From the NCBI GenBank assembly GCA_964458715.1, contig CAYWJP010000001.1, positions 2,022-66,021 on the forward strand: a stretch of DNA of 64,000 nucleotides. The letters run 5' to 3'. Below the pieces are notes generated by a model that had not been told where the DNA came from, ran no database searches, and saw only the letters and a list, made by a program, of their open reading frames with translations. Positions 13,073 through 63,877 of the stretch are shown piece after piece (position 1 is the stretch's first letter; each line of letters starts with the position of its first letter). The DNA is from an uncultured Bdellovibrionales bacterium (lineage in GTDB: Bacteria > Patescibacteriota > Minisyncoccia > Moranbacterales > DUUL01). The position numbers and the translations under genes were made by a program.

Positions 13073-14026
13073 TTAGCGTTTTAATAATTGTAAAATTCTA
13101 TAAATCCAATATTTAAGTGGACATAAAATTAAATCGTAACAACCAGGAAATACAACCGGCGCGCAATTAGGACGAAATCCTTTTTTAAATCGAGTTATTC
13201 CTGCCCATTTTTTCTTGTTCAATTCAACTGCTATACCAAAAAAATCATATTTTATGGCACCTTTCTCCTTGGCTCTTTTAATAGCTTCCCATTGTAAAAA
13301 ATAATTAGCCATAAGATTTCGATCTTTATCTGAAGAAGCTCCATGTAAATAAGTGGCTACTCCGCCAAAATAACTAACAATAATCGCTCCGACAGGTTGC
13401 TCTCCACTAGAAGCCACTAGAAGCTCCAAATTATCCCTTGGAACAGCTTTGAACATCTTTTTGTAGTATCCACTATTATGAAAAGATACACCATCTCTAA
13501 TGGCTGTTTCTTGGGTTAATTTCCAAAAAATGTCTAGGTCTTCAAGATTTTCCGAAATTCTGACTTCGACCTCCTTTTTTTCAGCCAAGCGAATATTATA
13601 GCGAGTCTTTGATTTCATTTCAGCTAAAATTTGGTCCAAATCTTTTTTCAAGTCAATTACTAAAGTTTCCGAAGATTGATGATTTTTCCTCGCTTTAACT
13701 ATCCAACCTTTGAATTTTTTCAAATCTTCTTTTCTCTGAGGCTCCACTCTAATCCAACTCGCCCTATTTTTAATTGCAATTTTCTTAATATTCTCTAGCA
13801 ATAATTGATTGTCTTCCTCATCGTCGCTAAAGACAGGACCGCGAGGAATATAAAAATACTTACCAACAACTGGCAGTTTGTTTTCAATAACCAAAGTTTT
13901 GTTTTTTGAACTTTCTGTCAAATAGAAAGTTTTTCCCAATTCACGCTGAAAAGCCACCCAATGCACAGATTGTAAAAAACCCCCGTCTAAACTATTTTCT
14001 TCTAAAAATCTCTCTTTTTTATCCAT
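13073..14026 (-). CDS. FemAB family peptidyltransferase (lipid II amino-acid bridge synthase-like)
   Basis: 317 aa, FemX/FemAB-like length and N-terminal region. Immediately downstream of the murE-like gene on the same strand. Confidence 0.5.
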   Translation of the reverse strand: MDKKERFLEENSLDGGFLQSVHWVAFQRELGKTFYLTESSKNKTLVIENKLPVVGKYFYIPRGPVFSDDEEDNQLLLENIKKIAIKNRASWIRVEPQRKEDLKKFKGWIVKARKNHQSSETLVIDLKKDLDQILAEMKSKTRYNIRLAEKKEVEVRISENLEDLDIFWKLTQETAIRDGVSFHNSGYYKKMFKAVPRDNLELLVASSGEQPVGAIIVSYFGGVATYLHGASSDKDRNLMANYFLQWEAIKRAKEKGAIKYDFFGIAVELNKKKWAGITRFKKGFRPNCAPVVFPGCYDLILCPLKYWIYRILQLLKR

Positions 14027-14202
14027 TTTAAAAATATTATTATTCTAAATATTGTCAATATCCGCCTAGCACGACAGGGATTAGATATTTAAGTGTAGTT
14101 TGAGGAAAATTTAATCACGATTAAATCAGATTCTTCATCTCAATATTCTCTTAATATAACAGAAATCCTATATTTGAGCACAGTTGAAAAACACCAAGAA
14201 TT

Positions 14203-14310
14203 ATAAGTTTGAGTGCAATTCGAGGAAAAACCGGAGTTGTCGTCTGGGGCGTATGAATAATACAGCGAAGTCGACACGATGGTTTTAACAAAGAAGTGCG
14301 CCAAACTTAT
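14203..14310 (+). repeat. Family-1 structured intergenic repeat, copy A (a degenerate half-copy lies just upstream at about 14171-14200)
   Basis: Outer stem ATAAGTTTG/CAAACTTAT encloses the core TTTGAGTGCAATTCGAGG…GCGTATGAATAA…AACAAAGAAGTGCGCCAAAC. Ends 10 nt before the ruvA stop codon. Confidence 0.7.
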
Positions 14311-14319
14311 AGCTCTTGT

Positions 14320-14889: not shown

Positions 14890-14898
14890 CTTTTTATC

Positions 14899-15031
14899 TT
14901 AATTTTGAATTTTAAATTTTGAATTTTGATTCAATTTAGAATGACTTAATTTATAATTTCAGTAATTTTTTAGAAAATTAATTCATTAAAAATTAGAATT
15001 TGATTCAAAATTCAAAATTTAAAATTAATTT
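14899..15031. promoter_or_regulatory. Large imperfect inverted repeat built from two AT-rich heptamer modules in the divergent ruvA/rpsT intergenic region
   Basis: Forward arm 14899-14952 (TTAATTTTGAATTTTAAATTTTGAATTTTGATTCAATTTAGAATGACTTAATTT) and reverse arm 14990-15031 (AAAATTAGAATTTGATTCAAAATTCAAAATTTAAAATTAATT), between divergently transcribed genes. Confidence 0.45.
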
Positions 15032-25946: not shown

Positions 25947-25986
25947 TTCTGATTATTTAATTATTGTAAAATTAACCACTCAATAT

Positions 25987-26130
25987 TAGAAATTTATTAT
26001 TTGAGCAAAGTTCAAGGAAAAACCGAGCAATGCAACGCAATTTACTAAATTGGTAAATGAAGTAAATCGTGGAGGTGGCGCCTGCCCGCCTTTGGCGGGA
26101 CAAAGAAATTTGCCAAATAATAAATTTCTA
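25987..26130 (+). repeat. Family-1 structured intergenic repeat, copy B (with an internal insertion)
   Basis: 22-23 bp outer stem TAGAAATTTATTATTTGAGCAAA/TTTGCCAAATAATAAATTTCTA. Core TTTGAGCAAAGTTCAAGG…GACAAAGAAATTTGCCAAAT. Its terminal CTA is the complement of the upstream gene's TAG stop. Confidence 0.7.
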
Positions 26131-26445
26131 GCCTTCATACAAGTCTAAGACTTCGTCAAACGAAATAGGATCCCTTTTAAAAACATTACAAGCTTCCTCA
26201 TAGTCTAAGTCAGTTAAAATCCCCAAAGTAACGATATTATCATTATTTTGAAGACCTTTGCTAATAACTGCCAAAGAAGCACTGCGACAAAAATTACAGT
26301 TAACATGAACTAACATTGCATCTTTCTTGTTTTGAACAATTTTAATACTCTGTTTGCCGTATTTTCTACCGCAAATAGAACACTTCATCAAAAGATTAAC
26401 TTCATTCATAAGCTTGATATTAACAATTATTCCCCCTTTAGTCAA
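26128..26445 (-). CDS. Hypothetical Cys-rich (zinc-ribbon-like) protein
   Basis: CSICGRKYGK ... HVNCNFC pairs. The stop codon is part of the terminal stem of a family-1 repeat. Confidence 0.35.
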   Translation of the reverse strand: MTKGGIIVNIKLMNEVNLLMKCSICGRKYGKQSIKIVQNKKDAMLVHVNCNFCRSASLAVISKGLQNNDNIVTLGILTDLDYEEACNVFKRDPISFDEVLDLYEG

Positions 26446-27715: not shown

Positions 27716-27798
27716 TTAATTAAATTATTTTTAATTTATTCATCTACTTCTTTTAAATTTTAGCACTTACTCACAAATCTCGCAAACCCTTTCTTCCG

Positions 27799-27852
27799 AA
27801 AATTTTGAATTTTGAATTTTGAATTTCGATTCAATTTTCAATGATTTAATTC
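27799..27852. repeat. AT-rich heptamer-repeat module (opposite orientation) upstream of murG
   Basis: AAAATTTTGAATTTTGAATTTTGAATTTCGATTCAATTTTCAATGATTTAATTC is the reverse complement of the dcw-type module. Confidence 0.55.
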
Positions 27853-28147
27853 CCGCCTACTCGCCTCGATTCGACGAAGCGGGCCTGCAGGCAGATTCAA
27901 TGACCTAATTTTTTAAAATCATCTTTAAGCGACGTTTGTCATTAAATGGTGAATAAGAAAATTCTTCAAAAATAGTTTTTTTCTCAACAAAACGGTCTAA
28001 TGAGTTATCCACCCTGTATAAATAGCACTTCGTAATTTAACAGGGTAAAGAATATCTCCGCTAAAGGCGGACACAGTTTTGCACCCTAAAAACAATAAAA
28101 TAACCCCTTTCGAGGTTATTTTTGAATTTATATATAAAACACGTGGA

Positions 28148-28260
28148 CTTGGGAGGTTGAGTACAATTCGAGGAGAAGTTGAGTACCGAGCGAGATGGAC
28201 TTAATGGTCCATTGAGCGAGTAACGGAAACTTCGACAAAGAAATCTACCAAACTCTCAAG
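28148..28260 (+). repeat. Family-1 structured intergenic repeat, copy C
   Basis: Core TTGAGTACAATTCGAGG…GAGCGAGATG-GGAC..GTCC hairpin…CGACAAAGAAATCTACCAAAC. Imperfect outer stem. Ends 12 nt before the tuf stop. Confidence 0.65.
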
Positions 28261-28272
28261 TCTTAAATAGTT

Positions 28273-31970: not shown

Positions 31971-32094
31971 ACAGAAATTAAATGTTTGAGTGCAGTTCGA
32001 GGCAAATTTTCAATTGCGTATGAGATGTGCTGAAATGGCACGTTGAAAAGCAACTGAAAATTTAACAAAGAAATGTACCAAACATTTAATTTCT
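31971..32094 (+). repeat. Family-1 structured intergenic repeat, copy D (best preserved)
   Basis: Perfect 17-bp outer stem CAGAAATTAAATGTTTG/CAAACATTTAATTTCTG. Core TTTGAGTGCAGTTCGAGG…GCGTATGAGATG-GTGC..GCAC hairpin…AACAAAGAAATGTACCAAAC. Lies between the rpsG stop and the fusA 5' UTR. Confidence 0.8.
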
Positions 32095-32099
32095 GACAT

Positions 32100-32567: not shown

Positions 32568-32690
32568 GTTATTTAAATTTCTTAATATAATTTCTTGTTT
32601 ATAAATAAACACTCAACAACTAACATTCAACCTCCATTCAACTCTCAACTTCAAAACATTCAACTCCAGCAAAACTCATATTACGCAATA

Positions 32691-32813
32691 CAGAAATTAA
32701 ATATTCGAGTGCAGTTCGAGGCGAAATTAAAAATTTTATTGAGACGCACTAAATTGGTGCGGCGAAATAGAATTTTTGATTTCAACAAAGAAATGTACCG
32801 AATAGTTAATTTT
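32691..32813 (+). repeat. Family-1 structured intergenic repeat, copy E
   Basis: Same 5' end CAGAAATTAAAT, but the stem is changed compensatorily (ATTCG/CGAAT versus GTTTG/CAAAC in copy D). Internal hairpin GCGCAC..GTGCG. Lies between the rpsL stop and rpsG. Confidence 0.8.
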
Positions 32814-32817
32814 AAAC

Positions 32818-38048: not shown

Positions 38049-39914
38049 TTAATCATTACTTTCATCTTTTTTTGGCTCTTTACTATTTTCTTCCTCAGAA
38101 ACAAGATTTAAATAATCATGAGATTTATTAAATTTTTCTAATTGCTCTTTAGTATATTCCTCAGTCGGCTTGATCCCATAATGTTCAAACAAGAATTTTG
38201 CCATCTCCCCAAAAACTGGACCAGCCGTGCTTTCTGCCCACTCAACATCTTTAGGATTATCGATTATCACTAACATGGCAAATTTAGCATTATCTACCGG
38301 TCCAAAGCCAGCAAAAGAACCAACGGTTGCACCCTCAACATAGCCTCCTTTTTCTTTATCTGAAATTTGAGCCGTTCCAGTTTTTCCTGCTACTCGATAG
38401 CCCGGAACTCCAGCCAATTTACCATGCCCATTAACAACATTACTTTCTAACATCAAATCAATTTTATTGGAAGTATCTCTGGAAATAACTTTTCTCACTA
38501 CCTCCCTTTCAATTTCCCTTTTTTGTCCGTTAGAATCAATTCTAGCTTGAATGATTTTAGGCTTAACTAATTCCCCCCCGTTAGCTAAAGCCGCATAAGC
38601 AGTAGCTAATTGAAGAGGAGTAACTGATATCCCTTGCCCAAAAGAAGCCGTATAATATTCAATATCTCGATTGGTTTTTAGATTAGAAATATTTCCATTC
38701 ATTTCACCAAATAATCCAATTCCCGTTTTCTTTCCAAATCCAAACTTCTCAACATATTCTAAAAATTTATTATTGCCTAATTTTTTTTCAATATGAATAA
38801 CTCCAGTATTAATAGATTTTTCTATTATTTCGGTCATAGTTTGTTTACCATAAACTTTTTCTTCCGAGTTTTTAATGGTATAACCAGAAATTTCAACCGA
38901 ACCCGTATCAATATAGGTGTCATTGACTTCAATAACTCCAGCGTCCAAACCAGCCGCCATTGTAAAAGCTTTAAAAACTGATCCACATTCATAAACATTA
39001 GCTAAATTTGAGTTCATATAAACACTGGCATCTTCCACTTCCGAAAAACTATTCAGATCAAAAGTCGGCTCTTGAGCCATGGCCAAAATATCGCCAGAGT
39101 AAGGATCTATTATAATAATTCGACCTCCATCGGCATCGTGTTTCTTAATCGCATTTTTCAAAGTCAATTCTGCCTTAAATTGAATAGCATAATTAATTGA
39201 TAAAATTAAATCACTTCCATTTTGAGCTGGACTTAATAATCGCTCTCCAATTGAAATCCATCGTTTACCCGCATCTTTTTCTTGTTTTAGCCAACCTTTC
39301 TTCCCTAACAATAAATCATTATAAGATTTCTCAATTCCATATAAACCAACTCTTTCATTTTTTCCATTATAACCCTCAAATCCAATTACTTGAGATGCCA
39401 AAGAATTGTTAGGATAATAACGCCAACTTTCACTTTCTAGTTGAATTCCGTCATTATCTAATTCTTTTATTTTTTTAATTTCTTCTTCGGATATTTTTCT
39501 TTTTAAAGGCTCATAGACGTCATCCTTTTTTGATAATTTTAAAAAAACAATTTCCCGTTCCATCCCTAAAATTTCGCTCACTTTATAGGACAAAACTTCC
39601 ACATCATCATTTTTAATATTATCAGGCACTGCATAAACAGTAAACATATCTCTATTAGTAGCTACTGGCAATAAACCACTTCCTTCACTCAAAAAAATTC
39701 CGCCTCTTTTGGGCTCCAAAGTCGACAGAGAGAAGTGTTGATTATCGGCTTGGGCCTTATAAAGATCATAGCCTTTAATCTGTAAAACATATAATCTAAA
39801 AAAAACTACCCCAAATAAAAATAAAAGCAGGACGGAAAGAAAGTTTATCCTGTTTCTAAAAATCTTTTCTCGATTGTCGTTATCACTTTCTCTCGTTTTA
39901 CTATTATTTACCAT
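38049..39914 (-). CDS. ftsI: Peptidoglycan D,D-transpeptidase (class B PBP, FtsI-like)
   Basis: N-terminal TM anchor and the SxxK (GSVFK), SxN and KTGT (GKTGTAQ) motifs. Confidence 0.8.
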   Translation of the reverse strand: MVNNSKTRESDNDNREKIFRNRINFLSVLLLFLFGVVFFRLYVLQIKGYDLYKAQADNQHFSLSTLEPKRGGIFLSEGSGLLPVATNRDMFTVYAVPDNIKNDDVEVLSYKVSEILGMEREIVFLKLSKKDDVYEPLKRKISEEEIKKIKELDNDGIQLESESWRYYPNNSLASQVIGFEGYNGKNERVGLYGIEKSYNDLLLGKKGWLKQEKDAGKRWISIGERLLSPAQNGSDLILSINYAIQFKAELTLKNAIKKHDADGGRIIIIDPYSGDILAMAQEPTFDLNSFSEVEDASVYMNSNLANVYECGSVFKAFTMAAGLDAGVIEVNDTYIDTGSVEISGYTIKNSEEKVYGKQTMTEIIEKSINTGVIHIEKKLGNNKFLEYVEKFGFGKKTGIGLFGEMNGNISNLKTNRDIEYYTASFGQGISVTPLQLATAYAALANGGELVKPKIIQARIDSNGQKREIEREVVRKVISRDTSNKIDLMLESNVVNGHGKLAGVPGYRVAGKTGTAQISDKEKGGYVEGATVGSFAGFGPVDNAKFAMLVIIDNPKDVEWAESTAGPVFGEMAKFLFEHYGIKPTEEYTKEQLEKFNKSHDYLNLVSEEENSKEPKKDESND

Positions 39915-40050
39915 GATAATTGCCCGTTTAGGAATTTCTTTAAAATCATTCCAGGTTTTGAATTCGATCCATCTTTCCCCCTAGTAATACCGTTATATTG
40001 ATACTGTTCCTTAATTTCTAATTTTGAATTTTGAATGAATTTTTAATATC

Positions 40051-40141
40051 TGAATGTCTGAATTTTTAAAACTCCGTTTTAGTTTTAAAATTAAATCATT
40101 TGAAATTGAATCAAAATTCTAAATTCGAAATTCTAAATTTC
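40051..40141. repeat. AT-rich heptamer-repeat module (dcw type) between ftsL and ftsI
   Basis: GAATTTTTAAAACTCCGTTTTAGTTTTAAAATTAAATCATTTGAAATTGAATC followed by (AAAATTC/TAAATTC/GAAATTC) tandem heptamers. The same module occurs at 41584-41665 and 42186-42290. Confidence 0.6.
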
Positions 40142-40146
40142 TTAAT

Positions 40147-40524
40147 TTATTCAGTCATCATCGCCATCTCATCGCTTTTTTCAATTTCGACAAAACTAAC
40201 CTGATCAGGGCTTACTAAATTTAATCTTTCTCTTTCATTTTCAAAATGATAACTAGATTTTAACTGAGCTATCTGAATTTCCAAAGACTCGTTTTTATCT
40301 CTTAATTCTTCTAATAATTGTTCTTTGCTGTTAATCTCCTGCCCCATAGTCGCTAATTGATTTATCTGAAAAATATAACCCAGACTAGAAACTACTACCA
40401 TCATAAACAAACTCGAAAATATTAATTTAAGATTAAAAATTTGCGAAATATTTCTGGACTTCTTGCTTTTAGACTGTTGAGTACTAAAAGTTTGGCAATT
40501 TTTAACTAATAGTGATTTACTCAT
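40147..40524 (-). CDS. ftsL: FtsL/DivIC-like septum formation initiator (single TM plus coiled coil)
   Basis: 125 aa with one TM helix followed by a leucine-zipper-like coiled coil. Canonical position between rsmH and ftsI. Confidence 0.45.
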   Translation of the reverse strand: MSKSLLVKNCQTFSTQQSKSKKSRNISQIFNLKLIFSSLFMMVVVSSLGYIFQINQLATMGQEINSKEQLLEELRDKNESLEIQIAQLKSSYHFENERERLNLVSPDQVSFVEIEKSDEMAMMTE

Positions 40525-40577: not shown

Positions 40578-41504
40578 TTACCCTAACTTCTTGGCGACCC
40601 GAAGCTTAGCGCTTCGAGATCTTGTATTTTCTTTTAATTCTTCTTCTGATGGTCGAATGGGTTTTCGAGTAATTATCTCTAATATTTTTTTCTGATTACA
40701 AACGCAGACAGGAAGTTCTTTGGGACAAATACATCCCCCTGTATTTGCCCTAAAGAACTGTTTCACCAATCGATCTTCGAGAGAATGAAAACTTATTACC
40801 GCTAATCGACCTTCGTTATTTAAAACGCCAATTGATTCTTTTAAAAAAACTTCCAGATTATCTAATTCATTATTCACTGCAATCCTTAAGGCTTGAAAAA
40901 CTCTAGTAGCTGGATTCATTCCCCTCCTAGCCTTAGCATTACCAATTACTATTTCCTCTAGTTCTTTAGTCGTTTCAATCTTCTTTTCTTTACGTCGCTC
41001 CACTATTCTCTTGGCAATTTTTCTAGAATTTGATTCCTCTCCATATCGGAAAAATATATCCACCAACGATTCTTCTTTCCAGCTGTTGACAATGTGATAA
41101 GCCGTTCTAGTTCCTTCTTGTCCTAATCGCATATCCAGAGGAGCATCAATCTGAAAGCTCATCCCGTATTCCTTATTCTTCACCTGGTCTAATCGCCAAC
41201 CTAAATCAGCCATTATTCCATCTACTTTGTCAATTTTCAAATCTTTCAATATTTGCCGAATATTAATAAAATTGTCCTTTATTAAATAAACTTTCGGCCC
41301 TTTTTTATTTTCTCCTATTTTCTTTTTAAATTCGTCAATCGCCATCTGATCTAAATCAATTCCAATCAAAGTCCCCGTTTCTCCAATCTTCTCCATTGCT
41401 AACTGACTATGTCCTCCCCCACCTAAAGTTGCATCTACTATGGTCATTCCAGGTTTTATATTCAATCCTTCCACTGTTTCCCCCAGCAAAACTGTTATAT
41501 GCAT
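40578..41504 (-). CDS. rsmH: 16S rRNA m4C1402 methyltransferase RsmH (MraW)
   Basis: VDATLGGGGHS SAM motif and conserved C-terminal region. Confidence 0.9.
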   Translation of the reverse strand: MHITVLLGETVEGLNIKPGMTIVDATLGGGGHSQLAMEKIGETGTLIGIDLDQMAIDEFKKKIGENKKGPKVYLIKDNFINIRQILKDLKIDKVDGIMADLGWRLDQVKNKEYGMSFQIDAPLDMRLGQEGTRTAYHIVNSWKEESLVDIFFRYGEESNSRKIAKRIVERRKEKKIETTKELEEIVIGNAKARRGMNPATRVFQALRIAVNNELDNLEVFLKESIGVLNNEGRLAVISFHSLEDRLVKQFFRANTGGCICPKELPVCVCNQKKILEIITRKPIRPSEEELKENTRSRSAKLRVAKKLG

Positions 41505-41583
41505 AAATTAAAATTAATTTTCAATTTTTCCGCCTCGGCAAGCCTCCGGCGAGATGGGCAATCAATTTACAATGACTGAATGC

Positions 41584-41665
41584 CTGAATTTTTAATTTAA
41601 AAATTAAATCATTCAAAATTCGAAATTGATTCAAAATTCAGAATTCAAAATTCAAAATTTTAGTA
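41584..41665. repeat. AT-rich heptamer-repeat module upstream of rsmH
   Basis: AATTAAATCATTCAAAATTCGAAATTGATTCAAAATTCAGAATTCAAAATTCAAAATTTT; heptamer array GAATTCA AAATTCA AAATTTT. Confidence 0.6.
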
Positions 41666-41672
41666 TTTATTT

Positions 41673-42107
41673 TTAATAAATACCTAATCGTCCTAACTGC
41701 TCCGCAATTTTGTCTTGATCCTTCTCCGCCCCACTCTTATATTTATCCCAAACCCCTTCATCCCAAAGCTCCAATCGATTAAATAATCCGGCAACTGTCA
41801 CCGCTTTTTTCAATTTGGCATAATCTTTCAAATAATCCGGCACCACAATTCTGCCCTGAGAATCCAAATCCAAATCAATCGCTCCGGCTAACATTAAACG
41901 AACAAAACTTCGAGTAGACTTTTCTCCAACTGGCATATTCCCTAATTTCTCAGCAATTTTTTCCCATTCTTTCATCGGATAAACAAATAGACATTGATCC
42001 AATCCCCGAGTCACTACTACTCTCCCTTTAAAATCACCCCGAAACTTGGCTGGTAGCGCCAACCGTCTCTTGCTATCTATTGAATGTTTGTATTCTCCGA
42101 TGAACAT
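41673..42107 (-). CDS. mraZ: Transcriptional regulator MraZ
   Basis: MFIGEYKHSIDSKRRLALPAKFR and a second DxxxR repeat. Confidence 0.9.
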   Translation of the reverse strand: MFIGEYKHSIDSKRRLALPAKFRGDFKGRVVVTRGLDQCLFVYPMKEWEKIAEKLGNMPVGEKSTRSFVRLMLAGAIDLDLDSQGRIVVPDYLKDYAKLKKAVTVAGLFNRLELWDEGVWDKYKSGAEKDQDKIAEQLGRLGIY

Positions 42108-42185
42108 AATTGCAAATTATTATTTTATCAATGGATTTCTATTTATTTTTGTTTGCAAAATTTTGAATTTTTAATTTTTAATTTT

Positions 42186-42290
42186 GAATGAATTTTTAAA
42201 ACTCCATTTTAGTTTTAAAATTAAAAAATTAAATCATTCAAAATTGAATCAAAATTCGAAATTCGAAATTCGAAATTTACTCTAAATAAT
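42186..42290. promoter_or_regulatory. AT-rich heptamer-repeat module upstream of mraZ (candidate operator/promoter region)
   Basis: GAATTTTTAAAACTCCATTTTAGTTTTAAAATTAAAAAATTAAATCATTCAAAATTGAATCAAAATTCGAAATTCGAAATTCGAAATTT. Contains the 10-bp inverted repeat TTTTAAAACT/AGTTTTAAAA and four tandem CGAAATT heptamers, 80-180 nt upstream of the mraZ start. Confidence 0.45.
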
Positions 42291-42733
42291 CCCTTTATAT
42301 AAAATGAGCTTTAAGTATAAACAAAACCCATAATCCCAACAGCCTCATTTTTCTTTCCCCACTTTTCACCACGCAATACCATTTTAAACCACCAGTCAAC
42401 CCTTGTCAAACATTTCTCTCCATTTTTCCAATTTTCCCTAAAAACTAATCAAAAAAATGGCTTATTAATGACATTCGCGACTGCGTCCGCCCTTGGCGGA
42501 ACACACCATTTAATTTCATATCCTGTTGAGTTATACACAATTTGTTAACAGTTCTTTTAAATTAAAATTTAAAAGAAGATTTAGGATTTAAGAACTGCTT
42601 CCGACTTGCCTACTGACCTTTTTCGTCGAATCAAGACGAACAGGCAGGCTTTAAAATCTCCAAATATCTCTTATTTAAAATAAAAACAGGGTTATCGATA
42701 TTGTCAACAACCCCGTCTCTTAATATACTTTCA

Positions 42734-42952
42734 GAAAAAAGATCTTCTTCCGCATTCAGGACATACAAAAGCTCTGCACCCGTTTGGACAAACATCGGTT
42801 TTGATAGTCTGCATGTTAGCTCCCGTTAAATAAGCATTACAAGGATATCAATCACCGGCCTTCAAAACATTAGCTGGACACTTAATTTCTCCAAAAGGTT
42901 TTTTCAACGCAATTGGAATCGCCATATGAGTATAAATTTTTTCTTTAGCCAT
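42734..42952 (-). other. Cys-rich micro-ORF, translationally coupled to the upstream gene and interrupted by one in-frame TGA (34 aa + TGA + 37 aa)
   Basis: Read from the reverse complement: MAKEKIYTHMAIPIALKKPFGEIKCPANVLKAGD-TGA-YPCNAYLTGANMQTIKTDVCPNGCRAFVCPECGRRSFF. The first ATG follows the upstream TGA by 2 nt and has a G-rich SD. The second half has its own GGGAG SD. Confidence 0.2.
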
Positions 42953-42954
42953 TT

Positions 42955-43269
42955 TCACCCCCTGTTTGTTCTTTTATATTTAAGAACCATCAAAACCAAA
43001 GGCTCATCACTTTTATTCCAAAGATTAAAAGAGTGACTTCTAGGAAAAGCTCTTCCATCCAAACGCTCGATTGAGCTTATTTCTTGAAAACATTCCCCGC
43101 CCACAGTTTTGCTAATTTCTCCCTTGGATTCACCCAGAACTTCAGCCAATACAAACCAATCGATTCCATTAAAAATCATTTTTTCCCGAACCTCTCCCGG
43201 TTGCAATACTAATCTATCAATAAAAACAACTTCAGGAAAAAGATATTTAAAATAACCGTCGTCTTTCAT
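42955..43269 (-). CDS. Hypothetical protein (104 aa), possibly a small beta-barrel/cupin-like
   Basis: Separated by 1 nt from the upstream 217-aa gene. No recognisable motif. Confidence 0.4.
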   Translation of the reverse strand: MKDDGYFKYLFPEVVFIDRLVLQPGEVREKMIFNGIDWFVLAEVLGESKGEISKTVGGECFQEISSIERLDGRAFPRSHSFNLWNKSDEPLVLMVLKYKRTNRG

Positions 43270-45780: not shown

Positions 45781-45821
45781 ATATACAAAATACGATTAAA
45801 ACTCTTGGGGCTATTTGAGGT

Positions 45822-45931
45822 TTATGAGTTTGAGTAAAGTTCAAGGAAAATCCGAGTAGCGTATGAGATGTACTTGATGGTACATCAAAAAGCAACGGAG
45901 GATTTGACAAAGAAATTTGACAAACTCGTAA
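45822..45931 (+). repeat. Family-1 structured intergenic repeat, copy F
   Basis: Outer stem TTATGAGTTTGAG/GACAAACTCGTAA. Core TTTGAGTAAAGTTCAAGG…GCGTATGAGATG-GTAC..GTAC hairpin…GACAAAGAAATTTGACAAAC. Ends 4 nt before the stop of the 45936 gene. Confidence 0.75.
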
Positions 45932-45935
45932 GCCG

Positions 45936-46256
45936 CTACCTAAGCCCTAGTTGATTTTTAAGCTGGTCAGCCTCTTGTTTGGTCATTTGACCGGACTTAA
46001 CCGATTCGTCTAATTGTTTCAGAATTTTATCTTTCTCTTTCAAAATATTTTGCGGATTCATCATTTTCCGCATTGCTTCTTCTCGTTTAGATTGAGGCAA
46101 TTTCTTAAAAATTTTCAGAGCCCAACGCTCTTTTCTAGACAACTTTGAATCATCAACCTTTTCCAACATTTCATCCATTTTACCCATCATACCATCCACT
46201 TTTGGATTCTTAGATTGTTCATCATCATTTTTTTTACCAAAATTGAAAAATCCCAT
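45936..46256 (-). CDS. Hypothetical K/E-rich protein (106 aa)
   Basis: Low-complexity charged helical protein. Followed by a family-1 repeat. Confidence 0.35.
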   Translation of the reverse strand: MGFFNFGKKNDDEQSKNPKVDGMMGKMDEMLEKVDDSKLSRKERWALKIFKKLPQSKREEAMRKMMNPQNILKEKDKILKQLDESVKSGQMTKQEADQLKNQLGLR

Positions 46257-51333: not shown

Positions 51334-52257
51334 TCAAACTCTCACTCTTGTCTCCTCTAAATCCCCCACCCTCTCCCATTGCTCATCAACTTTATTTTGG
51401 ATGTCCTTTATTAGAGCATTTTTATTCTTACTCTTGAAAATGTGCTTGAATCTCCCCTGAGTTTGAATAAATTCTTCAATTTTAATTCTCTTTTGAGGCT
51501 TATAATTGATCTTGTATTCTCCATCAATAATTTCGTAAAGTGGCCAAAAATTAGTTTCTGTTCCTAATTTGGCAATTTCGATAGTTTTATAAGGAGCATG
51601 CACCCACTGATTAGGGCAAGGTGAAAAAACTAAAATGAACGAAGGACCTTTGGTAGCAAAAGCTTTTTTAACTTTGGCCTGAAAATCATCAATAAACCCC
51701 ACATTGGCAGTCGCCGCGTATTTAATATGATGAGCGGCTACAATCGCCATTAAATCTTTTCGAGCTACTTCTTTTCCAAAAGATTCTTTGCCAGCTGGGG
51801 TGGTTTCGGTTGAAGCGCCAAAGGGCGTAGCTCCGCTTCTCTGATTTCCAGTGTTCATATAAGCTCCATTATCATAACAAACATAAAGAAAATCGTGTTG
51901 TCGTTCCAAGGCTCCCGACAAAGCTTGCAATCCAATATCATAAGTCCCGCCATCTCCACCAAAAGCCACAAATTTAACTGGTTTTTTTGTTTTGATTTTT
52001 TTGCGTTTAAGTAAAGCTCTGTAGGCCGTTTCCGCTCCCGAAACCGTCGCTCCAGCATTTCCAAAAACACTATGAATATAGGGAACTTTCCAAGAAGTAT
52101 TCGGATAAATTGTGGTAGTCACTTCCATGCAACCGGTAGCATTAGTCACGACGATTGGATTATCAGTTCCATTCAAAACTGTTCGAGCAATTATCCCGAT
52201 TGGACAACCAGCACAAGTTCCAGAAGTAGTAAATTTTTGTTCTTTTTCTTTAAGCAT
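51334..52257 (-). CDS. porB: Pyruvate/2-oxoacid:ferredoxin oxidoreductase beta subunit (TPP-binding)
   Basis: GCMEVTT ... GGDGGTYDIG TPP-binding motifs. Confidence 0.85.
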   Translation of the reverse strand: MLKEKEQKFTTSGTCAGCPIGIIARTVLNGTDNPIVVTNATGCMEVTTTIYPNTSWKVPYIHSVFGNAGATVSGAETAYRALLKRKKIKTKKPVKFVAFGGDGGTYDIGLQALSGALERQHDFLYVCYDNGAYMNTGNQRSGATPFGASTETTPAGKESFGKEVARKDLMAIVAAHHIKYAATANVGFIDDFQAKVKKAFATKGPSFILVFSPCPNQWVHAPYKTIEIAKLGTETNFWPLYEIIDGEYKINYKPQKRIKIEEFIQTQGRFKHIFKSKNKNALIKDIQNKVDEQWERVGDLEETRVRV

Positions 52258-54273: not shown

Positions 54274-54582
54274 TTATTTCGTATCCTTATTTATCATTTT
54301 TATGGCTTTAATTGGACAGATTTCAGCGCACAAACCACAACCTTTGCAATATTTATAATCCACCACAGATTTATTTTTACCGTCCACTTTTTTTATTCTT
54401 ATTGCATCTTCTGGACAAAATTTTACACATAAACCACAAGCGATACATTTGTCACTAATTTCTGGCGCCACTTGAGACCACTCACCAGTAGGTGGATAAT
54501 TTTTTTCATCATTTTCAATTACTCCCCCTAATTCTTGTCCTTTTTTATCATTATTATTCTTCATAAGCTGCCCTGATAGCAT
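54274..54582 (-). CDS. porD: Pyruvate:ferredoxin oxidoreductase delta subunit (2x[4Fe-4S] ferredoxin)
   Basis: CIACGLCVKFCP and CKGCGLCAEICP cluster motifs. Confidence 0.8.
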   Translation of the reverse strand: MLSGQLMKNNNDKKGQELGGVIENDEKNYPPTGEWSQVAPEISDKCIACGLCVKFCPEDAIRIKKVDGKNKSVVDYKYCKGCGLCAEICPIKAIKMINKDTK

Positions 54583-59291: not shown

Positions 59292-59348
59292 AAAACAAGA
59301 TAATCACAAATATTAAATTAATTTAAAAAACTTCTGAATCTGTATGTA

Positions 59349-59415
59349 ATTTGAGGAAGATTCGATTCGCCGCGGCAAAGGAAAACCTGACAAAGAAGTG
59401 TGCCAAATTTGAAAG
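59349..59415 (+). repeat. Family-1 repeat, degenerate short copy G
   Basis: Retains TTTGAGGAAGATTCGA…TGACAAAGAAGTGTGCCAAAT. Lies 12 nt before the stop of the DnaQ-like gene. Confidence 0.4.
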
Positions 59416-59426
59416 TTTTGCCAATC

Positions 59427-63789: not shown

Positions 63790-63877
<88 letters not shown>

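Follow-up and report, generated by a model that had tools for sequence, protein, structure and literature searches.

A 64,000-nt stretch of DNA from an uncultured member of the Patescibacteria (contig CAYWJP010000001.1, referred to as the window; all positions are window coordinates) carries on its minus strand the dcw (division and cell wall) gene cluster, the first gene of which, mraZ, is preceded by a long interval poor in open reading frames (ORFs). The first-pass annotation of this DNA had marked the interval (42108-42954) as a possible location of an unclassified RNA gene or, alternatively, as an extended leader with a regulatory role in the dcw operon. The analysis described here leads us to a different reading, to which we assign a probability of about 0.8, namely that the gap is an ordinary dcw promoter and MraZ repressor-binding region that has been lengthened by terminators and dispersed repeats, with no hidden RNA gene.

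The genes around the gap all lie on the minus strand and form the dcw cluster, whose order according to Pfam is mraZ-rsmH-ftsL-ftsI-mur ligase-ftsA-ftsZ (Table 1). The window has a GC content of 33%, and ORFs read with genetic code 11 cover 97% of it; a UGA-sense genetic code was rejected because of this coverage and because TGA terminates 14 of the 81 long ORFs. Within such a compact genome the gap is as unusual as it had been said to be: at a cutoff of 80 amino acids (aa) it is the largest of the window (847 bp versus a median of 69 bp), and no ORF of 60 aa or more could be found in any frame of 42108-42954, the longest being 54 aa. The ORF-poor character does not, however, reach all the way to 42955. 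Positions 42734-42952 hold a 73-codon frame with a homolog in one of the related loci (L001), and therefore the true non-coding part is limited to approximately 42108-42733 (626 bp).

The gap was compared by BLAST with 160 related Patescibacteria mraZ loci (L001-L160, each sampled over ±3 kb), and a single segment, approximately 42348-42470, was found in many of these relatives. Alignments resolved the conserved block into a short terminator hairpin, a promoter and four MraZ boxes, with a pair of DnaA-box-like 9-mers (42531-42550) located just upstream. The predicted promoter, Pmra (TTGACA-17-TAAAAT), is the top promoter match of the region; its -35 element is invariant and its -10 element reads TAnAAT in all aligned relatives, and its spacing would place the mraZ start site near 42374. 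The hairpin upstream of the promoter, which in the relatives takes the form ACGGC...GCCGT followed by a T6-7 run, has 96% of its cells paired across 10 loci (versus 10-70% for slid controls), with compensatory changes in two of the five pairs (CG<->UA and GC<->AU). Folding of seven loci with RNAalifold gave two helices upstream of the promoter, and compensatory changes were confined to the terminator; the second helix is short, lies over the invariant 9-mer pair and shows zero compensatory change. A likely role of the small terminator is to shield the mraZ promoter from read-through.

The four direct boxes downstream of the -35 element repeat with a period of exactly 10 bp and span the promoter spacer, the -10 element and the interval from +1 to ~+18, thus covering the predicted start. 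The array (GTGGTGAAAAGTGGGG) agrees with all three published descriptions of MraZ sites (discussed at the end), and the boxes are invariant in the alignments of relatives. The pattern GTGGN6GTGG occurs four times in the window versus 0.22 expected, and its only intergenic occurrence is the one upstream of mraZ. The other minus-strand matches (13404-13417, 51956-51969 and 54468-54481) fall inside ORFs and are probably not MraZ operators. Among the relatives, the pattern is present within 200 nt upstream of mraZ and on the mraZ strand in 106 of 155 loci (128 matches), while the opposite strand of the same 200 nt has none and the rest of the loci almost none; the array consensus across loci is AAAGTGG(G/A/T)GAAA. 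The MraZ protein of the window retains all three residues, K13, R15 and R86, by which MraZ contacts GTG(G/T) boxes in the M. genitalium structure solved by cryo-EM (PMC12957436), in the contexts D11-S-K13-R-R15 (DSKRR) and D82-S-Q-G-R86 (DSQGR). It is 94-96% identical to MraZ of Patescibacteria-labelled metagenome-assembled genomes and 67-78% identical to that of Candidatus Moraniibacteriota; these identities point to a Moraniibacteriota-like member of the Patescibacteria as the source of the DNA. Judged by sequence, the four boxes are the putative MraZ operator, and, since they cover the -10 element and the start site, MraZ would be expected to repress its own operon by promoter occlusion. 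The stretch that had originally been singled out for its atypically high GC content (42300-42520) proved to be this same conserved promoter/operator block; at 0.36-0.41 it does stand out from the flanking AT-rich DNA (0.13-0.28) but is ordinary beside the window value of 0.33.

Table 1. Features of the mraZ upstream gap and of the adjoining genes (window coordinates; minus-strand features of the gap are given 5' to 3').
Feature	Position	Strand	Basis or remark
Small Cys-rich ORF, zinc-ribbon-like (CPxxC...CPxC), 73 codons	42952..42734, stop 42733..42731	minus	translation
Predicted strong intrinsic terminator closing the small-gene operon upstream	42720..42682	minus	terminator scan; 17-pair stem, then U-run
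Imperfect hairpin flagged in the first-pass annotation, copy of a GC-richer repeat	42594..42655	none assigned	not conserved
DnaA-box-like 9-mer, degenerate, TGTTAACAA	42550..42542	minus	alignment
DnaA-box-like 9-mer, TGTGTATAA (plus strand TTATACACA, fits TTATNCACA)	42539..42531	minus	alignment
GC-rich 6-bp hairpin, TCCGCCAAGGGCGGA	42500..42486	minus	pattern search
Small conserved terminator hairpin (ATGTC-loop-GCCAT) with T7 run	42474..42451	minus	alignments; ~40 nt upstream of -35
Predicted sigma-70-type promoter Pmra (mraZ/dcw)	-35 TTGACA 42409..42404; 17-nt spacer; -10 TAAAAT 42386..42381	minus	11/12 positions
Putative MraZ operator, four direct boxes GTGGTT/ATGGTA/GTGGTG/GTGGGG	42392..42357; box starts 42392, 42382, 42372, 42362	minus	sequence
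Putative mraZ 5' untranslated region, ~265 nt	42374..42108	minus	no Shine-Dalgarno sequence
AT-rich imperfect palindrome of heptamer repeats (AATTTTG arm, CGAAATT arm), ~145 nt	42143..42290	none assigned	tandem repeats and repeat families
mraZ, first gene of the dcw cluster	41673..42107	minus	Pfam MraZ 1.1e-37
rsmH	40578-41504	minus	Pfam
DivIC/FtsL-like gene	40147-40524	minus	Pfam
PBP transpeptidase gene	38049-39914	minus	Pfam
Mur ligase, then FtsA, then FtsZ genes	after the PBP transpeptidase gene	minus	Pfam

The two 9-mers upstream of the terminator are 11 nt apart, and both their motif (TGTnnAnnA-N2-TGTnnATAA) and their position upstream of the terminator and promoter are kept in all 10 aligned relatives. 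The consensus of the pair in relatives is TGTGGAnAA-N2-TGTGGATAA, with a perfect second box in L004, L005, L006 and L083, and TGTGGATAA is the reverse complement of the DnaA box TTATCCACA. In 79 of 154 loci the 400 nt upstream of mraZ contain at least one perfect 9-mer (at least two in 26 loci), with approximately none elsewhere in the ±3 kb. Of the 87 perfect 9-mers in 126 non-redundant upstream regions, 21 are in-phase members of GTGG arrays; a further 39 share the strand of the arrays but lie outside them, and the other 27 are inverted. As MraZ arrays are strictly unidirectional, most of the perfect 9-mers would represent a separate motif class; still, the 9-mer contains a GTGG core, and therefore MraZ may be the binding protein instead. 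According to later papers (PMC2533591, PMC8203912) that refer to Goranov et al. 2005, DnaA binds and represses the B. subtilis yllB(mraZ)-ftsL promoter, which makes DnaA-dependent control a reasonable, if hypothetical, reading here as well. We propose tentatively, at somewhat less than even odds, that the patescibacterial dcw promoter is under dual control by MraZ and DnaA, its DnaA boxes standing next to the MraZ operator and in places interleaved with it, such that the replication initiator would directly gate the division operon of these minimal-genome bacteria, with the window version of the site partly decayed at 42531-42550.

Downstream of the operator the conservation ends. The distance from the last MraZ box to the ATG is 243 nt and its sequence is not conserved, and the leader as a whole shows no significant structure when its fold is compared with shuffled sequences (z = -0.57). 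The distance from the -35 element to the ATG varies widely among the loci: it is 80 nt in L084/L085 (where the last MraZ box is ~20 nt from the ATG), 133 nt in L086, 182-237 nt in L004-L006, 302 nt in the window, 308 nt in L002, 435 nt in L003 and 601 nt in L001. According to the alignment, the extra leader DNA of the window is the AT-rich module, which makes up more than half of the ~265-nt leader and contains the heptamer arrays reported in the first-pass annotation; these are real, with AAATTCG repeated 3.7 times at 42252-42277 and AATTTTG 4.4 times at 42159-42189. An nhmmer profile of the module detected five copies in the window (14898-15030, 27797-27853, 40006-40143, 41560-41664 and 42139-42282), the one at 27797-27853 being a half module. 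Each copy matches on both strands, and therefore the element is palindromic; it folds into long AU hairpins (z = -2.1 for the leader copy and -4.9 for the copy at 14.9 kb). Three of the five copies are located within the mraZ-rsmH-ftsL cluster and have orthologous copies in L001, L003 and L083. The module is present in both the leader and the mraZ-rsmH spacer of these three loci and absent from the leaders of L084-L086. No description of this family was found in Rfam or in the other searches made. Because of the variable leader lengths, the dispersed palindromic nature of the module and the insignificant leader fold, we read the leader as a short ancestral untranslated region (UTR) expanded by a dispersed repeat resembling REP and MITE elements; the module may have a cis-regulatory side effect, although nothing points to one.

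The mraZ-rsmH spacer (41505-41672, 168 nt) and the spacer after ftsL (39915-40146, 232 nt) hold one module copy each, and a GC-rich segment of the former (41516-41560) recurs in L001 (2145-2222) and at two sites in L003.

The upstream end of the gap is formed by the small Cys-rich ORF and the strong terminator that follows it. The ORF, whose translation reads MAKEKIYTHMAIPIALKKPFGEIKCPANVLKAGD before and YPCNAYLTGANMQTIKTDVCPNGCRAFVCPECGRRSFF after an in-frame TGA (42850..42848), matches over its full length, across this codon, the N-terminal portion of an ORF of 169 aa in L001/L082 (tblastn and BLASTP; 34% identity, pairwise E = 4e-8). No homolog was found in a word-indexed search of 5.8 billion proteins, and there was no Pfam match. 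Selenocysteine is not indicated at the TGA, as this codon is aligned with Phe, not Cys, in the L001 homolog. The alignment suggests that the ORF is probably a gene recently broken by a nonsense mutation, or else the product of an assembly error. The terminator at 42720..42682 has a predicted stability of -21.6 kcal/mol (z = -6.0, with none of 200 shuffles equally stable) and is 83% identical to the equivalent site of L002.

Between this terminator and the conserved block, little is shared with other genomes. Even relatives with 86-96% identical MraZ have not kept the spacer 42480-42680 or the leader. The 9-mer pair apart, the interval 42680-42475 is not conserved, is repeated in the window at one site only and is collinear in L002 alone. 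The imperfect hairpin that the first-pass annotation had placed at 42594-42645 does exist, although its fold is not above that of shuffled sequences (z = -1.8 and -1.4 for the minus and plus strands, respectively), and it had no match in the 160 related loci. The 3' half of the hairpin (42621-42654) resembles the reverse complement of ~27845-27880 (27 of 34 positions identical, a score reached by none of 300 shuffles). This second copy abuts the heptamer arm at 27797-27853, within the second-largest ORF-free gap of the window, and the recurrence of the hairpin beside a heptamer arm identifies it as repeat DNA. The GC-rich 6-bp stem TCCGCCAAGGGCGGA has three matches in the window versus 0 expected, is confined to the window and is not found in relatives.

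Two other sites of the window are built from related elements. A perfect 30-nt palindrome on the plus strand at 1295-1324, located between plus-strand genes, consists of two adjacent TCCGCC-NNN-GGCGGA hairpins with the same stem as 42486-42500. The second-largest ORF-free gap (27716-28272, 557 bp) contains the heptamer arm, the GC-richer hairpin and a copy of a 125-nt family (28142-28266). Overall, it seems that the same repeat families make up the large gaps of this genome.

The 125-nt family deserves a description of its own. These long hairpins have seven copies in the window, all on the plus strand (14194-14319, 25986-26131, 28142-28266, 31971-32096, 32690-32816, 45815-45938 and 59325-59421), and further copies in the relatives (L001:2465-2590, L001:3435-3559, L002:2755-2879, L003:2630-2754, L003:3438-3560 and L086:2935-3055). 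At least six of the window copies are located ~0-6 nt from the stop codon of a minus-strand gene (e.g. after rpsL and rpsG, between rpsL, rpsG and fusA), and their orientation relative to that gene is constant. An alignment of the window copies with the six from relatives has 91% of its cells paired and compensatory changes in 26 of 41 pairs, which none of 500 shuffles reached; the conserved motifs are GTTTGAGTGCAGTTCGAGG and GACAAAGAAATGTGCCAAAC, and there is no Rfam match. For each copy, the more stable fold, by 10-19 kcal/mol, is that of the strand antisense to the genes on its flanks, and on that strand G·U pairs number 39 versus 16 A·C pairs. In L001-L003 a copy follows the MraZ boxes immediately, within the mraZ leader, and in L001, L003 and L086 another stands immediately after the mraZ stop codon. 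The mraZ region of the window showed no remnant of the family, even with search filters off.

Read along the minus strand, the features of the gap suggest the following arrangement. The upstream operon would end in the nonsense-interrupted zinc-ribbon-like gene and its strong intrinsic terminator, followed by ~130 nt of non-conserved filler that carries a copy of the dispersed hairpin repeat. Next would come a compact block of two DnaA-box-like 9-mers, a terminator acting as a shield against read-through and a near-consensus sigma-70 promoter, overlaid by the four MraZ boxes with their 10-bp period across the spacer, the -10 element and the start site. If MraZ acts here as it does in E. coli, B. 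subtilis and Mycoplasma, its oligomer would bind the boxes, occlude RNA polymerase and autorepress the operon. Transcription from ~42374 would yield a 5' UTR of ~265 nt, more than half of it repeat module.

Several points weigh against this interpretation. The second of the four boxes reads ATGG rather than GTGG, and the window copy of the small terminator (42474..42451) is weak, with one mismatch. A spacer of ~130 nt (42551-42680) falls outside all parts to which a function has been assigned. Each of the five module copies stands immediately ahead of a gene start, and the module may therefore have a role as promoter, translation enhancer or attenuator. In addition, the start site, the use of the promoter and termination at either hairpin are predictions.

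Among the alternatives, a hidden RNA gene was the one originally put forward. An unclassified structured small RNA, encoded either around 42594-42645 or at 42680..42451 between the terminators, would be in keeping with the two same-strand terminator-like hairpins ~200 nt apart, which could bracket a short transcript, and with a 296-nt segment that folds better than its shuffles (z = -3.4). However, this value is due to the terminator stems, the 148-nt core giving only z = -1.7, and the flagged hairpin, as described above, is not significant on either strand. On the minus strand, the segment has no promoter-like site ahead of it. The absence of RNase P, signal recognition particle (SRP), tmRNA and tRNA hallmarks, already noted in the first-pass annotation, was borne out by Rfam and ARAGORN. 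At gathering scores the sole Rfam match in the whole window was a tRNA at 63790; in 41450-43050 a search at E<=10 returned best matches of E>=3, far below gathering scores, so that this check, which the first-pass annotation had proposed, yielded no credible family; Rfam searches of six relatives gave no match, and ARAGORN reported no tRNA or tmRNA in the region. The comparison with relatives, also proposed there, showed the promoter/operator block to be conserved and most of the spacer and leader not to be: apart from the DnaA-like patch and the terminators, nothing of the segment is conserved in the 160 loci. The 9-mers and the terminator of L004-L006 are only ~20 nt apart, too close for a conserved RNA to fit in the interval, and the terminator is the sole consensus structure besides the uncompensated helix over the invariant 9-mers. 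We therefore consider a small RNA gene highly unlikely. None of the ORFs of at least 20 aa in the gap has a ribosome-binding context or conservation; a 31-aa ORF at 42445..42540 was rejected as a gene, since it runs through both hairpins. The non-conserved parts of the gap could also be decaying remnants of genes lost beside the dcw promoter. The gene content upstream of the conserved block does vary among close relatives, the adjacent small ORF has acquired a nonsense codon, a fragmented cupin-like ORF occupies the equivalent place in L003, and ~770-840 nt upstream of the promoter lack any ORF of 70 aa or more in L084 and L003. On the other hand, a tblastx comparison of the spacer with the window and the 160 loci found no protein-like match, its one hit being the collinear spacer of L002 (E = 3e-4); both frames are broken by stops, and the similarity is therefore one of collinear spacer DNA rather than of a peptide. 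With part of the spacer being demonstrably repeat DNA as well, we regard gene remnants as an unlikely explanation, albeit the strongest of the alternatives weighed here.

The other proposal of the first-pass annotation, a long dcw leader, was right insofar as there is a dcw promoter, an MraZ operator and an implied 5' UTR of ~265 nt; the regulatory information is, however, compact (42350-42550), and the leader itself is lineage-specific repeat DNA. A stronger version would make the leader a regulatory RNA (riboswitch, attenuator or RNase target), with the module as a cis-element for the stability or translation of mraZ mRNA. It would draw support from the presence of the module at three intergenic sites of the cluster (the leader, the mraZ-rsmH spacer and after ftsL), with orthologous copies in L001, L003 and L083, from its ability to form long AU hairpins, and from RNase III control of Corynebacterium mraZ mRNA, as cited in bioRxiv 10.1101/2022.02.09.479790. 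This version appears improbable to us, as the whole leader is not structured beyond expectation and has no riboswitch family match, relatives with 86% identical MraZ do without the leader module (their last box being ~20 to 67 nt from the ATG), and further copies of the module stand at unrelated loci (14.9 kb and 27.8 kb) and match in either orientation, which is the behavior expected of a selfish palindromic repeat. Least probable of all is an origin of replication (oriC), or a DnaA-titrating cluster, upstream of mraZ. The enrichment of perfect TTATCCACA/TGTGGATAA within 400 nt upstream of mraZ across Patescibacteria, in both orientations, could be taken to favor it. Yet the locus has just one TTATNCACA-type box, the window total of these boxes (11 versus 9.4 expected) is at chance level, and the other DnaA-like matches, near 63.2 kb, are inside ORFs. 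The GC skew is negative on both sides of the locus, and the genes on both sides are on the minus strand save for a few plus-strand ORFs at ~44.2-45.8 kb; there is thus no switch of skew or gene orientation, which argues against oriC. The boxes are few and interleaved with the promoter and operator, resembling DnaA as a transcription factor, and 21 of the 87 perfect 9-mers, being in phase with GTGG arrays, may be MraZ boxes. A dcw promoter and MraZ operator region extended by terminators and repeats thus remains the reading that we favor.

With this reading, an apparently empty region of 850 bp becomes an annotated control region, and a false non-coding RNA candidate is removed. The MraZ-box operator, studied so far in Proteobacteria, Firmicutes and Mollicutes, would be extended to Patescibacteria, where it is conserved across many lineages. 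The DnaA-box 9-mers beside the operator provide a testable hypothesis for the coupling of replication and division in organisms with very few regulators. In addition, two repeat families, the AT-rich heptamer palindromes and the 125-nt covarying hairpins by stop codons, explain much of the non-coding DNA of a compact genome, and the latter may outrank the mraZ gap in interest.

Each of the elements described above has counterparts in known systems. The heptamer module resembles REP/BIME, ERIC, Correia/NEMIS and MITE-like repeats in its length (100-150 nt), its imperfectly palindromic structure and its multiple copies, as well as in being strictly intergenic, in occurring within operons and in its variable presence between close relatives. 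It differs from them in being built of 7-nt tandem repeats, in its low GC content (13-19%) and in lacking defined terminal inverted repeats or a target-site duplication, its flanks being low-complexity AT-rich DNA; no module-associated transposase was noticed, none having been specifically sought. The 9-mers are comparable to the B. subtilis yllB(mraZ)-ftsL case in being identical or close to TTATCCACA, in their location beside the dcw promoter, in their conserved position and in their phylum-wide enrichment. The boxes of the window itself are, however, degenerate (one with 3 mismatches, the other fitting only the relaxed TTATNCACA), DnaA binding here is putative, and, in distinction to DnaA-regulated promoters, some of the 9-mers are in phase with MraZ arrays, which makes the binding protein ambiguous.

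The closest parallel is that between the dcw promoter of the window and the Pmra promoters already characterized. MraZ sites have been described as direct GTG(G/T) boxes with 6-nt spacers, usually three but four in M. genitalium, where the start site falls within box 1 (PMC12957436), and the likeness of the window operator to the latter lies in its four boxes. The B. subtilis site, GTGG[A/T]G-N4 repeated three times (bioRxiv 10.1101/2022.02.09.479790), agrees with GTGGTG-N4-GTGGGG of the window, and the Mollicutes motif AAAGTG[T/G] (PMC8475190) with its AAAGTGG flanks. Compared with Pmra of E. coli, B. subtilis, M. genitalium and M. gallisepticum, the window promoter belongs to an uncultivated patescibacterial host, its binding by MraZ is predicted, and its box 2 carries ATGG. 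It also differs from the known Pmra in a far longer 5' UTR (~265 nt), attributable to repeat insertion, and in the conserved terminator and two DnaA-box-like motifs that stand just upstream.

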